Source of the DNA: a virus
Lineage: Duplodnaviria > Heunggongvirae > Uroviricota > Caudoviricetes
IMG/VR virus record: IMGVR_UViG_2698536369_000014
DNA length: 8,333 nucleotides
Strand: one strand, 5' to 3'
The notes under the pieces were generated by a model. That model had not been told where the DNA came from, ran no database searches, and worked only from the letters and a program-made list of their open reading frames with translations. Shown one piece after another: positions 1 through 8,333 of this stretch; position 1 is the stretch's first letter, and each line of letters starts with the position of its first letter. Both the position numbers and the translations under genes were made by a program.

Positions 1-85
1 AGGTAATGGCGTTATCACGGTAATGATTAACAGCCCATGACAGGCAGACGATGATGCAGATAACCAGAGCGGAGATAATCGCGGT
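1..85 (-). pseudogene. rzpD: Rz (i-spanin) fragment beginning at about codon 5, with no start codon, fused out of frame to the endolysin fragment; continues beyond the window start
   Basis: Reverse complement of 1-85 translates to [28 protein letters not shown], which matches my recollection of lambda/DLP12 Rz residues 5-32 ([12 protein letters not shown]...). No in-frame ATG lies upstream; the frame joins the lysozyme frame offset by one base at about 85/86. Confidence 0.6.
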
Positions 86-284
86 TATACGTTTTACCGA
101 GCATGATGTCTTTTCCTGTATGCCCGTGACATACAGTCCATACACCAACAATATCTTTGTATGGTATGTAGCTGACACCCTCCAGACCATCGTTACCACT
201 TGAGCCAGTGATTAACACTGATGCTATAGCAATTGCTCCGCCACCAATAGCAGCAGCAACGGCTTTTCGTAATGATGGAGGCAT
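86..284 (-). pseudogene. rrrD: SAR endolysin (phage 21 R-type lysozyme) 5' fragment, about 66 native codons then unrelated readthrough
   Basis: [27 protein letters not shown]...[33 protein letters not shown] matches the R21 N-terminus (SAR domain and E-D-T catalytic triad region). After GKTY the frame runs into out-of-frame Rz sequence and stops at 27. ATG at 282-284 overlaps the holin stop (TAATG). Confidence 0.75.
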
Positions 285-499
285 TATTCACCTCTCGCAG
301 CCTTGCGCTTATCTTCTTTAATCTTGAAATAAAGGTTTGTCAGGTACGTCAGCAGGCCAAATACCAAGCTACCCAGCACACCTATTGCTGCCCACTGTGA
401 GGGCGTGACTTTATCGAGCAGCTGTAAAAACCAGTAGCCAGCACTGCCTGCGGAGGTGCCGTAGGCAATGCCCGTTGTTAACTTATCCATGGATTTCAT
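284..499 (-). CDS. essD: Class II pinholin, S21/EssD-like, 71 aa, with dual-start motif (Met1, Met4)
   Basis: [26 protein letters not shown]...[13 protein letters not shown] is near-identical in pattern to the phage 21 S pinholin. GGAGGTGA ribosome-binding site lies upstream of the ATG at 497-499. Confidence 0.9.
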
Positions 500-593: not shown

Positions 594-626
594 CAAAAAG
601 AAAAACGCCAGCGATTATTCTGGCGT
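594..626 (-). terminator. Intrinsic terminator on the minus strand, between the AppY-like gene and the holin
   Basis: 7-bp GC-rich stem ACGCCAG (605-611) / CTGGCGT (620-626) with an 8-nt loop, followed on the minus strand by TTTTTCTTTTT (plus-strand A-run 595-604). Confidence 0.55.
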
Positions 627-687: not shown

Positions 688-1418
688 TTACATCATGTCT
701 TTTTCTAAAAAAAATCTTGATGAATATTGATGGGGAGGAACACCAAAATATCTTCTGAAAACACTTACAAAATATGACGTGTTTTCATAACCGCATATCT
801 CAGCAACTTTTCCAACAGAATATAAATTGTAGCTTAATAACCTTTCCGCCATCACCATTCGCTCTTCAAGAATTAACTTACTAAATGATAAGCCTTCGTG
901 CTTTAATTTTCTTTTTAACAGACTTTCACTCAGATACAGTCTTGAAGATATATCACAAAGTCTCCATGCTGCAGATATATCCGTGTGAATAATAGCCTTA
1001 ACTTTACTTCCTAAACTATTAAGACATCCAAATAAAAAACTTTGCACTATTTTCTCTGAAGATAAGATAGCAAGACATGCAAGTGATATTTGATTTCTAA
1101 CAAAATCCACAGTTCTGCCATCACAATTCAAGCATGCAATCAAGTTCTTTAACAATGAAAAATCTTCACATTCCACCATCAAGTATGCCGGATAAAACCT
1201 TCTTACAGAAAAAGATGAGAGTGTGTTGCTTTTAAAGAAATCATTAACTGTTTTCTCTTCAACATCTACGATCATTACATGATCTATATTTGATGAAAAA
1301 AATCTTTTAAATTGTAATCAATGAGAACAGCACTTCCTTTTTTAAACAAAGTATCTTCTTTACCAATTCGGACATCAAACGAGTTCAACACCAAAATGAT
1401 AGAACATATGTATGGCAT
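688..1418 (-). pseudogene. AraC/XylS-family regulator of the AppY/YdeO/GadX type, split by a frameshift: N-terminal 43-codon ORF (1287-1418) and C-terminal 195-codon ORF (688-1275)
   Basis: C-terminal ORF carries an AraC-type HTH. Upstream ORF MPYICSIILVLNSFDVRIGKEDTLFKKGSAVLIDYNLKDFFHQI* has AGGTGG ribosome-binding site and resembles the AppY N-terminus (MDYVCS..SFD....FKK). The two frames are joined by adding one base at the A7 run 1296-1302, giving ...KDFFSSNIDHVMIVDVEEK... Confidence 0.6.
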
Positions 1419-1769
1419 ATTATCCACCTGATATCATTGGGGTTACACCAGGTAAGTATAGGTGGAAAATCAATATTCGCCAGTTCAACAATAAGGAAAA
1501 TCTCATTGCATCACAAGTATAAAATTATGTATTTAACTCACAAAGACAAATTATTAAACCAATCTGTTATATTATATATAGCTGCGTGGAATCATAATAT
1601 TATATATTTTGACTGGCATGTTTACCAACTTTAAGTTGCATCTCAATGGTTTCTTCAGCGTAAACAGAGTTTTTATACAAACTGACACTCTGGGTATCAT
1701 AGTGTAGTTTTTACGATTGTAAATATCCTGCATGCAGGAACTCATCCTTTTGGATGATATCGCATACAA

Positions 1770-2729
1770 TTAATTTACCATCAGTCTTAGAGCCAGTTCG
1801 TCCGGATAGGGATCGAAGTAATTCTGTGTAAGCAAGTAATCATTAGGATACTCACCCAGATAATGCTTCAGCAGAGTCAACGGCGCAAGAAGAGGTAATG
1901 TGCCAGAACGATAGTTAAGTATAACCTCGCTCAACTCTTTACGCTGGCGTGTACTTAAGTAGTTACTAAAATACCCCTGTATATGCATCAGCACATTCGT
2001 GTGATTTTTACGTGACGCAGGTTTTCTGAGAATCGCCATCAGCTTATCACGATACACCTCAAAGTATGATTCAAGGTCCGCCCACTCGTGTATTGCAGCC
2101 ACAAATGGTCCCATATCTTTATAGCCTGCCTGACTATGCGCCAACAACTGAAGCTTATAACGACTATGAAAAGCTAATAACTCTCTTCTTGATAATTTCT
2201 CCTTGTAAAGGTGATTGAGCTCATGCAAAGCAAAAACTCTTTCAACAAAATTCTCACGAAGCACTGGATCATGTAATCGCCCATCCTCTTCAACCGGTAG
2301 CCAGGAAAACTTTTCCATCAAAGTGCTCGTAAATAGTCCCACTCCATCTTTACGACCTCGATTACCATTTTCATCATAGACACGCACGCGCTCCATGCCA
2401 CAGCTGGGAGATTTAGCACAAACCACAAACCCCGATACATCCTTTAATTTGTCCATATAAGAACGACTAAACTCTGTCATTCTCTCTGTCACATCCTCAT
2501 TCTGGTCGTGGCTGAAACACATCCGTATATTTCCTTGCGTCGAGCGCACAAGACGTAGAGCAGGACGCGGAACTGGCAGCCCTATAGCCATTTCCGGACA
2601 TACTGGTCTGAATGTTACCCATTCCACTAATTTGTCCATTAAAAAGTCAGCTCTTTTGTGACCACCATCAAAACGAACAGCAGAACCGGCCAAACAACCG
2701 CTGATTCCAATCACAGTTTTTTTTATCAT
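1770..2729 (-). CDS. TudS(DUF523)-DUF1722 fusion protein, 319 aa; putative [4Fe-4S] desulfidase of the RudS/YbgA family
   Basis: N-terminal half has Cys12 (GISGC), Cys44 (RPVCPE) and Cys104 (VVCAKSPSCG), matching the three-Cys cluster ligands of TudS. C-terminal half has YbgA/DUF1722-like motifs (LLAPLTL, YFDPYP). Strong ribosome-binding site AAGGGGGAG before the ATG at 2727-2729. Gene is AT-rich. Confidence 0.8.
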   Translation of the reverse strand: MIKKTVIGISGCLAGSAVRFDGGHKRADFLMDKLVEWVTFRPVCPEMAIGLPVPRPALRLVRSTQGNIRMCFSHDQNEDVTERMTEFSRSYMDKLKDVSGFVVCAKSPSCGMERVRVYDENGNRGRKDGVGLFTSTLMEKFSWLPVEEDGRLHDPVLRENFVERVFALHELNHLYKEKLSRRELLAFHSRYKLQLLAHSQAGYKDMGPFVAAIHEWADLESYFEVYRDKLMAILRKPASRKNHTNVLMHIQGYFSNYLSTRQRKELSEVILNYRSGTLPLLAPLTLLKHYLGEYPNDYLLTQNYFDPYPDELALRLMVN

Positions 2730-2839
2730 ATTCTCCCCCTTGACTAATTCATTAACACATAAACTGTGTAGTGCACGGAATAAATTGCCTTTCTGGCGTC
2801 ATCACTGACAATTTTTCTGTTATGGACTATTCCTAATAT

Positions 2840-2889
2840 AGTATGAAAGTTCTTTAAGTGATCGGTCGTAATCATCTATCTTTCATACT
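2840..2889. promoter_or_regulatory. 10-bp perfect inverted repeat (AGTATGAAAG ... CTTTCATACT, 30-bp spacer) in the divergent promoter region between the desulfidase-like and Blc-like genes
   Basis: Arms at 2840-2849 and 2880-2889 are exact reverse complements, 33-82 bp upstream of the Blc-like ATG. Confidence 0.25.
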
Positions 2890-2921: not shown

Positions 2922-3446
2922 ATGAAGTTATGGCCTGTGTTGACTGGCATTGCACTCTCTTTCACTCTTATAGCATGTAAGGCCCCGACACCACCTAAAG
3001 GTGTGCAGCCGATTACAAATTTTGACGCCAACCGCTACCTCGGAAAATGGTATGAAATAGCTCGCCTCGAGAACCGGTTCGAACGTGGTCTGGAACAGGT
3101 CAGCGCTACTTATGGAAAACGGAACGACGGAGGGATTCGTGTACTTAACCGTGGATACGATCCAACGAAAAATAAATGGAGCGAGAGCGAAGGTAAAGCA
3201 TACTTTACTGGAGATACTAAAACTGCAGCGTTGAAGGTTTCGTTTTTTGGCCCCTTCTATGGTGGCTATAATGTAATCAAACTGGATGATGAGTATAAGT
3301 ATGCTCTTGTCAGTGGTCCGAACAGAGAATACCTATGGATTCTGGCAAGGACCCCAACTATTCCAGATAAAGTAAAAGCAGACTATGTGCGAACCGCTCA
3401 AAAGTTGGGATTCAATGTCAATGAATTATTATGGGTTAAACAATAA
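2922..3446 (+). CDS. Outer-membrane lipocalin lipoprotein, Blc-like, 174 aa
   Basis: Signal peptide with lipobox LIAC (Cys19). Motifs NFDANRYLGKWYEIARLENRFERGLE and KVSFFGPFYGGYNVI...YLWILARTPT align with E. coli Blc at roughly 55-60% identity by eye, so this looks like a diverged paralog, not chromosomal blc. Confidence 0.85.
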   Translation: MKLWPVLTGIALSFTLIACKAPTPPKGVQPITNFDANRYLGKWYEIARLENRFERGLEQVSATYGKRNDGGIRVLNRGYDPTKNKWSESEGKAYFTGDTKTAALKVSFFGPFYGGYNVIKLDDEYKYALVSGPNREYLWILARTPTIPDKVKADYVRTAQKLGFNVNELLWVKQ

Positions 3447-3472: not shown

Positions 3473-3502
3473 AGAAAAAAACCAGCCTTTGGGGAGGCTG
3501 GC
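3473..3502 (-). terminator. Intrinsic terminator on the minus strand about 100 nt downstream of Q (tR'-like)
   Basis: Stem CCAGCCT (3483-3489) / AGGCTGG (3496-3502), loop TTGGGG, followed on the minus strand by T7 (plus-strand A-run 3475-3481). No U-run on the plus strand, so it is unlikely to serve the Blc-like gene efficiently. Confidence 0.6.
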
Positions 3503-3601
3503 TAAATCAGGAAACAAGCTGTTATATGATAATAACTACGTTGCGATTCCAACATTTAAAATGTTAGACTAATGAGAATCAGACAGCAACTTTTCCTTTA
3601 A
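3503..3601 (-). promoter_or_regulatory. Putative late promoter pR' and Q-utilisation region
   Basis: Position only: between the Q stop and the tR'-like terminator, as in lambdoid phages. Candidate minus-strand hexamers TTGCTG-17 bp-TAACAT and TTGGAA-15 bp-TATCAT; not confidently assigned. Confidence 0.3.
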
Positions 3602-3979
3602 TTATTTCGAACAATCAGCATCCATCTCCAATCGGAGATCCAACACCATCAGCATACCCTCCACTACGCCCTCAGCTTTCTGGAGCATCCTGCCAACCCA
3701 ACAATCAGATCGCCCATGCTTACGTGCAAGCGCCATAAAAGTCATGCCGCCGACATAATAGTCCACCAATAAATCATGCAAATCGCTGTTGTTCTTTTTC
3801 AGACGGGCCATGCACCCGCAAATGATCATCGCGTCATCGTCACAACATTGTGGGCGAGATTTTACTTTTGAAGGAATTAATCCCTTAAAACCGGCGGCAA
3901 TGGACGACCAGGTCACATCTTCATGATTATTAGCCGCCCACGCTCCCCAACGCTCAAGACCCATCTGAATATCACGCAT
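3602..3979 (-). CDS. quuD: Late-gene antitermination protein Q (phage 82 / DLP12 QuuD type)
   Basis: [62 protein letters not shown]... is near-identical to K-12 QuuD as recalled. Start taken as the ATG at 3977-3979 (GGAG ribosome-binding site upstream), not the TTG-extended ORF ending at 3994. Confidence 0.9.
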
Positions 3980-4064
3980 CAACTTACTCCACAAAACTCA
4001 GACCAGAACGCCAATTACAAGCAAAAATCAACAAAACAGTATTAGTTGATTGTTATCTCTGACT

Positions 4065-8229: not shown

Positions 8230-8333
8230 TGGATTTGCCCCTATATTTCCAGACACCTGTTATCACTTAACCCATTACTGGCTTGCTGCCGTAGATATTC
8301 CCGTGGCGAGCGATAACCCAGTGCACTATGCGG
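8230..8333 (-). mobile_element. Right end of an IS2-like (IS3-family) insertion sequence, continuing beyond the window
   Basis: TGGATTTGCCCCTATATTTCCAGACA... matches the IS2 terminal inverted repeat as recalled; about 92% identity to canonical IS2 over the 104 visible bases. Confidence 0.75.
8241..8333 (-). CDS. InsD-like DDE transposase (IS2 orfB) C-terminal 30 codons, partial
   Basis: Minus-strand translation [30 protein letters not shown], with stop at 8241-8243. Canonical IS2 InsD ends ...[29 protein letters not shown] as recalled. Confidence 0.65.

Follow-up and report, generated by a model that had tools for sequence, protein, structure and literature searches.

Why a lambdoid prophage should carry a gene for a protein resembling enzymes that remove sulfur from transfer RNA (tRNA) is the question raised by an 8,333-nucleotide stretch of DNA from a virus of the class Caudoviricetes (IMG/VR record IMGVR_UViG_2698536369_000014; the whole stretch is hereafter called the window). 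The gene, rudS, occupies positions 1770-2729 of the minus strand as an intact open reading frame of 319 codons, and its ATG at 2729 is preceded by a strong Shine-Dalgarno sequence (AAGGGGGAGAAT). Homology and predicted fold indicate that it very probably encodes a RudS-type tRNA 4-thiouridine (s4U) desulfidase, as a moron within the late region of the prophage.

The domain content of the protein agrees with the fusion of TudS and DUF1722 put forward in the original prediction, which was made from the letters alone. Searches with hidden Markov models place the 2-thiour_desulf domain (Pfam PF04463, DUF523/TudS; E 3.1e-40), matched over the full length of its profile, at residues 7-149 (2283-2711, minus strand), and DUF1722 (PF08349, E 1.9e-40) C-terminal to it at residues 192-309 (1803-2156, minus strand). 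The latter half is all-helical in the structural model and 49% identical to YbgA of Escherichia coli K-12, as its designation as a YbgA/DUF1722 domain had implied. A TudS domain followed by DUF1722 is the arrangement by which RudS proteins are recognized (PMC11417400), and the window protein has it; at 319 residues with a fused DUF1722, it is not a stand-alone TudS, a single domain of about 150-170 residues. The NCBIfam equivalog model for YbgA (NF007549) gives 190.8 bits, under its cut-off of 237, and matches residues 160-315 only. The AlphaFold2 model built on a diverse alignment reaches a predicted local distance difference test score (pLDDT) of 96.4 and a predicted template-modelling score (pTM) of 0.92; an earlier run on a shallow alignment of sequences at least 70% identical gave a pLDDT of 52 and was discarded. 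The TudS fold is recovered in this model: the sole significant Foldseek matches in the PDB are TudS structures (6ZW9, 6Z96, 6Z93, and 6Z92; probability 1.00, template-modelling score on the target 0.70-0.74), and the same search finds no solved structural relative of the DUF1722 half. TudS (DUF523Vcz, PDB IDs: 6Z92 and 6Z96), a desulfidase of thiouracil and 4-thio-UMP, thus shares its fold with the window protein, along with the C, C-x-E, and S-x-S-C motifs and a conserved arginine; it differs in being a single domain of about 150 residues, with about 26% sequence identity.

The third iron-sulfur ligand could be placed only after a profile of 46 diverse homologues had been compiled. In TudS, the cluster is held by C10, C43, and C104, accompanied by E45, S101, and S103 within the C-x-E and S-x-S-C motifs (PMC10611767). 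A phmmer search of the whole window protein against PDB sequences aligned only its first 60 or so residues to TudS, or returned noise, and a search with residues 93-168 alone did not place the third cysteine. In the profile alignment (E 5.6e-17), S101-P-S103-C104 of TudS (6Z92) pairs with S107-P108-S109-C110 of the window protein, the SPSCG motif of the family being aligned to E99-G-S101-P-S103-C104-G, so that C12, C44, and C110 correspond to C10, C43, and C104. Among the 46 homologues E46 and R55 are invariant, and C12, C44, S107, S109, and C110 are at least 90% conserved. Of the three cysteines named as ligands at the outset, Cys12 and Cys44 stand; Cys104 does not, as this position is invariant only within homologues at least 70% identical and is not conserved across the diverse set. 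The SPSC alignment and the conservation make Cys110 the third ligand, in agreement with the list given for RudS_vir, a phage homologue (Cys12/Cys44/Cys110; PMC11417400). The ligand codons lie at 2694-2696 (C12), 2598-2600 (C44), and 2400-2402 (C110), and the catalytic ones at 2592-2594 (E46), 2565-2567 (R55), 2409-2411 (S107), and 2403-2405 (S109), all checked on the minus strand. Mutagenesis of RudS_KT showed E51, S111, S113, and R60 to be essential and S243 and R244 in DUF1722 to be important (PMC11417400); mapped by motif offset rather than by direct alignment, these residues correspond to E46, S107, S109, R55, S239, and R240 of the window protein, all of which are present.

The enzymatic activity of the closest tested relative is in line with this assignment. 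Jamontas et al. (2024) synthesised RudS_vir, the product of gene 66 of Escherichia phage 1H12 (H3V29_gp66), for expression in E. coli BL21(DE3) (PMC11417400). All RudS variants tested, RudS_vir included, reduced tRNA s4U in E. coli, whereas YbgA and stand-alone TudS, the substrates of which are free bases and nucleotides, did not lower it in the same assay; mutants of RudS homologues in the cysteine ligands lost activity (PMC11417400). The window protein is 93% identical to RudS_vir without gaps, both being 319 residues long; the 22 substitutions spare every ligand and catalytic residue, leaving C12/C44/C110 and the catalytic set identical in the two proteins. Phage 1H12, which is lambda-like and temperate, has the same cassette of Q, blc, rudS, an AraC-like gene, and holin, whereas the prophage of the window is a remnant and defective. 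Within E. coli, the allele seen in the window is of the most frequent class (596 genomes), as against 110 genomes with the 1H12 class. The early suggestion that the protein removes sulfur from s4U is therefore supported by a 93% identical protein that lowers tRNA s4U in vivo (PMC11417400), and every sequence and fold feature that could be tested here agrees with it. The pairing of phage and RudS, thought at first to be unexpected, was not new, this phage gene having been picked for testing in 2024 (PMC11417400); the enzyme has been published, and so has its presence in this phage cassette.

For the window protein itself, both the chemistry of the reaction and the decrease in tRNA s4U are supported by homology to the tested proteins. 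Cys12, Cys44, and Cys110 would, by the same homology, hold a [4Fe-4S] cluster, the fourth iron of which would bind the sulfur of s4U8 flipped out of the tRNA. Glu46, placed by Arg55, Ser107, and Ser109, would activate a water molecule for attack on C4, and the sulfur would depart via a [4Fe-5S] intermediate, leaving U8. The helical DUF1722 half would grip the anticodon arm, a mode of tRNA binding that was derived from mutagenesis and modelling of RudS_KT (PMC11417400). Host tRNA would in this way lose the near-ultraviolet (near-UV) chromophore that cross-links to C13, and exposure to ultraviolet A (UVA) would then no longer lead to uncharged tRNA, accumulation of guanosine tetraphosphate (ppGpp), and growth delay.

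The genomic setting bears on when such an enzyme might be made. The window covers the region of late regulation in a lambdoid prophage of the DLP12/phage-21 kind. Its late genes lie on the minus strand, and the gene order is ybcK, ybcL, ybcM, ybcN, ninE, ybcO, rusA, Q, a three-gene insert, holin S, and a truncated endolysin gene. The three inserted genes are blc (2922-3446, plus strand), rudS, and an AraC-family gene (688-1427, minus strand). The antiterminator gene Q (3602-3994, minus strand; PF06530, E 4.8e-50), annotated in relatives as 125 residues from 3979, encodes a protein 87% identical to QuuD of K-12. About 14-42 bp downstream of its stop codon lies a putative late promoter pR' (TTGCTG-17 nt-TAACAT; 3560-3588, minus strand), which was read from the sequence by position only and was missed by a consensus promoter scan; the sequence downstream of Q has no match to K-12 DLP12, and the promoter is therefore not anchored on a known one. 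It is followed by a tR'-like intrinsic terminator (3473-3503, minus strand), whose GC-rich stem of 9 bp is followed by U7 (RNA fold z -4.3); this terminator is kept with at most two mismatches in 83 of 84 related loci. The putative promoter followed by this terminator constitutes the pR'/tR' layout of lambdoid late regulation.

The insert has the properties of a moron: variable cargo in a conserved slot, atypical composition (guanine-cytosine content 0.32-0.44, against 0.48-0.51 in the flanks), and a terminator of its own. The latter, identified by a terminator scan at 626-598 (598-626, minus strand), lies after the AraC-like gene and before holin S; it is kept with at most two mismatches in 63 of 84 loci, and at least 16 others have a stem shorter by one nucleotide. 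The same slot, bounded by Q, pR', and tR' on its upstream side and by holin S on the other, is occupied by stx in Shiga toxin (Stx) phages (PMC8065619) and by nmpC in K-12 DLP12; in DLP12 the antisense porin gene nmpC lies between quuD and essD. The cargo differs, being a toxin or a porin there and a tRNA-modification eraser, a lipocalin, and a regulator here. The order Q, blc (antisense), rudS, AraC-like gene (where present), terminator, and S recurs in all 80 IMG/VR loci retrieved. Q is linked to the cassette in 79 of them, the exception being a contig that starts within the cassette, and is the same allele throughout (96-99%) save for one locus at 77%. The outer-membrane lipocalin lipoprotein encoded by blc (Lipocalin_2, Pfam E 7e-44; 316 bits with the NCBIfam Blc subfamily model, over the cut-off of 267) is listed as a common lambda moron (PMC6969025); the gene is divergent from rudS and antisense to late transcription.

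The cassette has counterparts in enterobacterial chromosomes. Among species representatives, chromosomal RudS is at most 76% identical to the phage protein. The chromosomal proteins (e.g., RudS_ST, which is Salmonella STM1389/ORF319, and those of Citrobacter, Enterobacter, and Kluyvera) share its two-domain architecture and length, and fall into two lineages. In the first (48 loci, 55-63% identity to phage RudS), phr lies directly downstream. The second (69-76% identity) is found in either of two settings. One, with 12 loci from Citrobacter, Klebsiella, Serratia, and related genera, has rudS at the end of an operon encoding an amine oxidase, DUF1365, a cyclopropane fatty acid (CFA) synthase, and DUF3833; the Blc lipocalin was considered as a relative of the DUF3833 protein that precedes RudS in Citrobacter, and no similarity between the two was detectable. 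The other comprises 13 loci from Enterobacter, Leclercia, Kluyvera, Buttiauxella, Raoultella, and Lelliottia, where rudS has a divergent blc neighbour with 74-82% identity to that of the phage. A MerR/MlrA-type regulator gene separates the two genes in Enterobacter mori (locus L105, 5021-7960), whereas in Kluyvera cryocrescens (locus L115, 6352-7960) they are adjacent as in the phage, with no regulator between them. Phage rudS, for its part, stands in a late operon with an AraC-like gene downstream, and is accompanied neither by the MerR regulator nor by the CFA operon of the chromosomal copies. By its layout the phage cassette resembles a blc-rudS unit captured from a chromosome and devoid of its MerR-type regulator, and the divergent blc-rudS pair of Enterobacter mori and Kluyvera is probably the source arrangement. 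The intergenic DNA between the phage genes has no similarity to the Kluyvera chromosomal intergenic region.

In E. coli the chromosomal gene has apparently been reduced. K-12 ybgA overlaps phr, so the adjacency of the two genes named in the original prediction is real, and YbgA has a DUF1722 homologous to that of the window protein but no TudS domain, and had no effect on s4U (PMC11417400). YbgA is 61% identical to the C-terminal half of RudS from Escherichia sp. ESNIH1, a member of the phr-linked lineage; as it is closer to that lineage, the prophage rudS is not a duplicate of the host ybgA locus. The E. coli ybgA-phr pair looks like the rudS-phr lineage shorn of its TudS domain, and the comparison implies that the chromosomal phr-linked rudS of E. 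coli has decayed to a catalytically inert ybgA. As for the surroundings of these genes, the H-repeat transposase gene ybfD is immediately upstream of ybgA-phr in K-12 (locus L009, 3093-5926). In most other Enterobacterales (loci L120-L171), a full-length RudS gene is directly upstream of phr.

We consider it about an even chance that rudS is a lysogenic-conversion gene, restoring to E. coli the s4U erasure, and with it the tolerance of near-UV growth delay, that its chromosome has lost. The terminator before the holin could permit autonomous, non-lethal expression of the moron in the lysogen. Several observations weigh against the explanation as a whole, enzyme and expression included. The linkage to light-response genes (phr, MerR/LitR, carotenoid/CFA operons) that is typical of chromosomal RudS, though not defining for it, is absent from the phage cassette. 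The divergent region between blc and rudS (2730-2921), which is 89.6% identical between the window and 1H12 alleles, is where any autonomous promoters would lie, and no convincing one was found there: it contains a weak promoter-like match at 2898-2871, and the consensus scan of the window returned 13 promoters with 11.1 expected in shuffled sequences. Published RudS assays all relied on over-expression. Finally, RudS_vir lowered s4U less than the other RudS proteins despite its high protein level, and it had the shortest lag among RudS enzymes when a uracil auxotroph was fed free 4-thiouracil (PMC11417400); tRNA may thus not be its sole substrate. These two findings on RudS_vir, together with the TudS-like catalytic domain, would also suit a function in salvage or detoxification, with phage RudS acting mainly on free thio-pyrimidines and nucleotides (4-thiouracil, or 4-thio-UMP from tRNA turnover). 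Such a function appears improbable: the decrease in tRNA s4U with RudS_vir was still significant, as it was not with stand-alone TudS, no RudS supported growth of the auxotroph the way TudS does, and the DUF1722 half is constrained at least as strongly as the TudS half (see below).

The main rival to lysogenic conversion is that RudS serves the phage itself, as an auxiliary gene expressed late, after induction, by which tRNA would stay chargeable and ppGpp low, allowing late proteins to be made and a full burst under sunlight. The position of rudS on the late strand, beyond Q and a strong tR'-type terminator, suggests that on induction it would be read by Q-modified polymerase along with the lysis genes, as stx is in Stx phages. 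Consistent with a phage function, rudS is co-oriented with the late genes in the stx slot, between the tR'-like terminator and holin S, and is always linked to the same Q allele; loss of the regulator of the Enterobacter mori type would fit a transfer of control to Q; related carrier prophages keep an S24 (LexA-like) repressor; and sunlight both triggers SOS induction and cross-links s4U8 to C13. The terminator before S, however, fits a stand-alone moron, and the scheme requires that the pre-existing pool of tRNA s4U be erased within a latent period of roughly 1 h at native expression. On balance a phage-serving RudS is possible but not the likelier outcome, and its complete form, in which Q-controlled RudS strips host s4U8 upon induction by sunlight, blocks the uncharging of tRNA by UVA and the stringent response, and thereby protects late protein synthesis and the burst, is somewhat more doubtful. 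Were it true, the phage would encode an enzyme that erases a modification of its host's tRNA to the benefit of the virus. A milder version holds that carriage of prophage rudS accounts for natural differences in near-UV tolerance between E. coli isolates, about 20% of which have the gene. The location of rudS in a Q-dependent late operon, in the slot of the Stx toxin, provides a concrete hypothesis on the timing of its expression.

The condition of the window prophage also argues for a benefit to the lysogen. In comparison with intact relatives, a 307-bp deletion (junction 86/87) has cost the endolysin RrrD its C-terminal two-thirds and rzpD its start, leaving a truncated RrrD-type gene (27-284, minus strand) in which residue 66 or thereabouts is joined to the rzpD region. 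Holin S, the first lysis gene (phage 21/EssD type; 284-499, minus strand; PF04971, E 2e-35), precedes it; with the endolysin gene so broken, the lysis cassette is dead. In the AraC-like gene, an A-run at about 1295 has been shortened by one base (A7, against A8 in relatives), which shifts the reading frame, and the recombinase gene ybcK is interrupted from 8230 by the end of an IS3-family insertion sequence (IS; 8230-8333), 98% identical to an IS3-family copy in a retrieved locus (L008, 10245-10348). Beside these broken genes rudS remains whole and differs from that of a close relative by three substitutions. The window prophage is a lysis-defective remnant, and, as the repressor region lies outside the window, the UV inducibility of this copy, taken for granted at first, is an assumption. 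Retention of rudS in a remnant that does not lyse, intact and under purifying selection, is not what a phage-serving gene would lead one to expect and favours the benefit to the lysogen.

Purifying selection on rudS is evident from the comparison with the 1H12 allele, which gives a ratio of nonsynonymous to synonymous substitution rates (dN/dS) of 0.108 at a dS of 0.30, or, by half, 0.077 for DUF1722 and 0.162 for TudS. This bears on the notion that rudS is a neutral passenger, taken with blc from an enterobacterial chromosome, hitch-hiking with the Q-S module, and functionless in E. coli. The decay of the window prophage would accord with it, as would the truncation of rudS in BL21(DE3) and the IS insertions found in the cassette of several genomes. 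A dN/dS of 0.11 over a dS of 0.30 is difficult to reconcile with neutrality, as is the integrity of the gene elsewhere: each of the 80 viral loci has the entire 319 residues at 97-100% identity, and at least 80% of the gene is retained in 1064 of 5426 complete E. coli genomes (about 20%). A neutral passenger is accordingly very improbable.

The same survey shows how common the gene is in E. coli. Its allele classes comprise 596 genomes at 99% identity or more, 430 at about 98%, and the 110 of the 1H12 class at about 92%; about 380 complete genomes have blc-rudS without the AraC-like gene (matches H77-H88). The gene also occurs in 12 phage records, and the cassette is found in phages isolated as particles. 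The commensal strain E. coli HS carries rudS, whereas K-12 does not. In BL21(DE3), a Qin-like prophage (locus L090, 6001-7397) contains Q, blc, and a 5' stub of rudS, 49 codons long, that is truncated by IS3 and entered as a partial '2-thiouracil desulfurase family protein'; this strain is the one in which the RudS paper expressed its proteins (PMC11417400). The statement that E. coli lacks RudS, made in PMC11417400 and in a review of July 2026, is thus true of laboratory strains only. Since about one in five complete E. coli genomes carry an apparently full-length prophage rudS, conclusions on s4U and near-UV drawn from laboratory strains may not hold for natural isolates. The window protein is 99% identical to a protein cluster (P0001) of 2556 member sequences. 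RefSeq names the protein 'YbgA family protein', and the RudS family in PHROGs (phrog_3275) is still entered as of unknown function.

A last explanation invokes conflict between phage and host, with rudS altering the stability of tRNA or its susceptibility to tRNA-targeting nucleases. In Vibrio cholerae, the degradosome breaks down tRNA-Tyr and tRNA-Ser once s4U is lost, and over-expression of RudS_KT halved two tRNAs in E. coli. The idea is nonetheless purely speculative and the least probable of those considered: neither rudS nor its neighbours match any PADLOC defence model, and no nuclease or tRNA gene is linked to rudS; searches of the window for Rfam families and tRNA genes returned none.

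The finding adds no new kind of system, as the enzyme class and a phage-borne representative are published. The points not met in the literature searched are the prevalence in E. coli, the slot in the late operon, and the captured blc-rudS origin, all of them incremental; the search found no paper linking lipocalin, YbgA, and prophage.

The third gene of the insert encodes a regulator of the AraC family (AppY/YdeO/GadX-like; HTH_18 and HTH_AraC matches) and is a pseudogene in the window, but the protein is intact at 243 residues in phage IdasGreatGrand, in one retrieved locus (L007), and in many genomes. Its best NCBIfam model is YdeO, far under the cut-off, the GadX model being also weak, and a full-length alignment with AppY, the DLP12 regulator, gives 31% identity. 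PatE, PsrA, and PsrB of O157 prophages were considered as candidates for its identity; among the matches listed for the cassette there is no O157-labelled strain. The spacer between rudS and the AraC-like gene (1428-1769; guanine-cytosine content 0.33) is only 58% identical, with indels, to that of 1H12, against 87-96% elsewhere, and one phage annotation puts a 57-codon open reading frame in it. On the other side of rudS, a 43-codon open reading frame (2744-2875, minus strand) corresponds to a hypothetical protein in phage IdasGreatGrand and is a candidate gene at most.

A few sequences among the homologues are probably artefactual. Two clusters, each from a single contig, join RudS to a GGDEF domain (P0002, 403 residues) or to DUF3833 (P0006, 500 residues), likely through read-through or an assembly artefact. 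Two metagenome-assembled genomes look mis-binned: a 3.2-kb contig of 'Candidatus Nanosynbacter' (L119) is 94-99% identical to the window genes, and an 'uncultured Clostridiales' locus (L096) contains rudS and neighbours of enterobacterial or E. coli-phage type.

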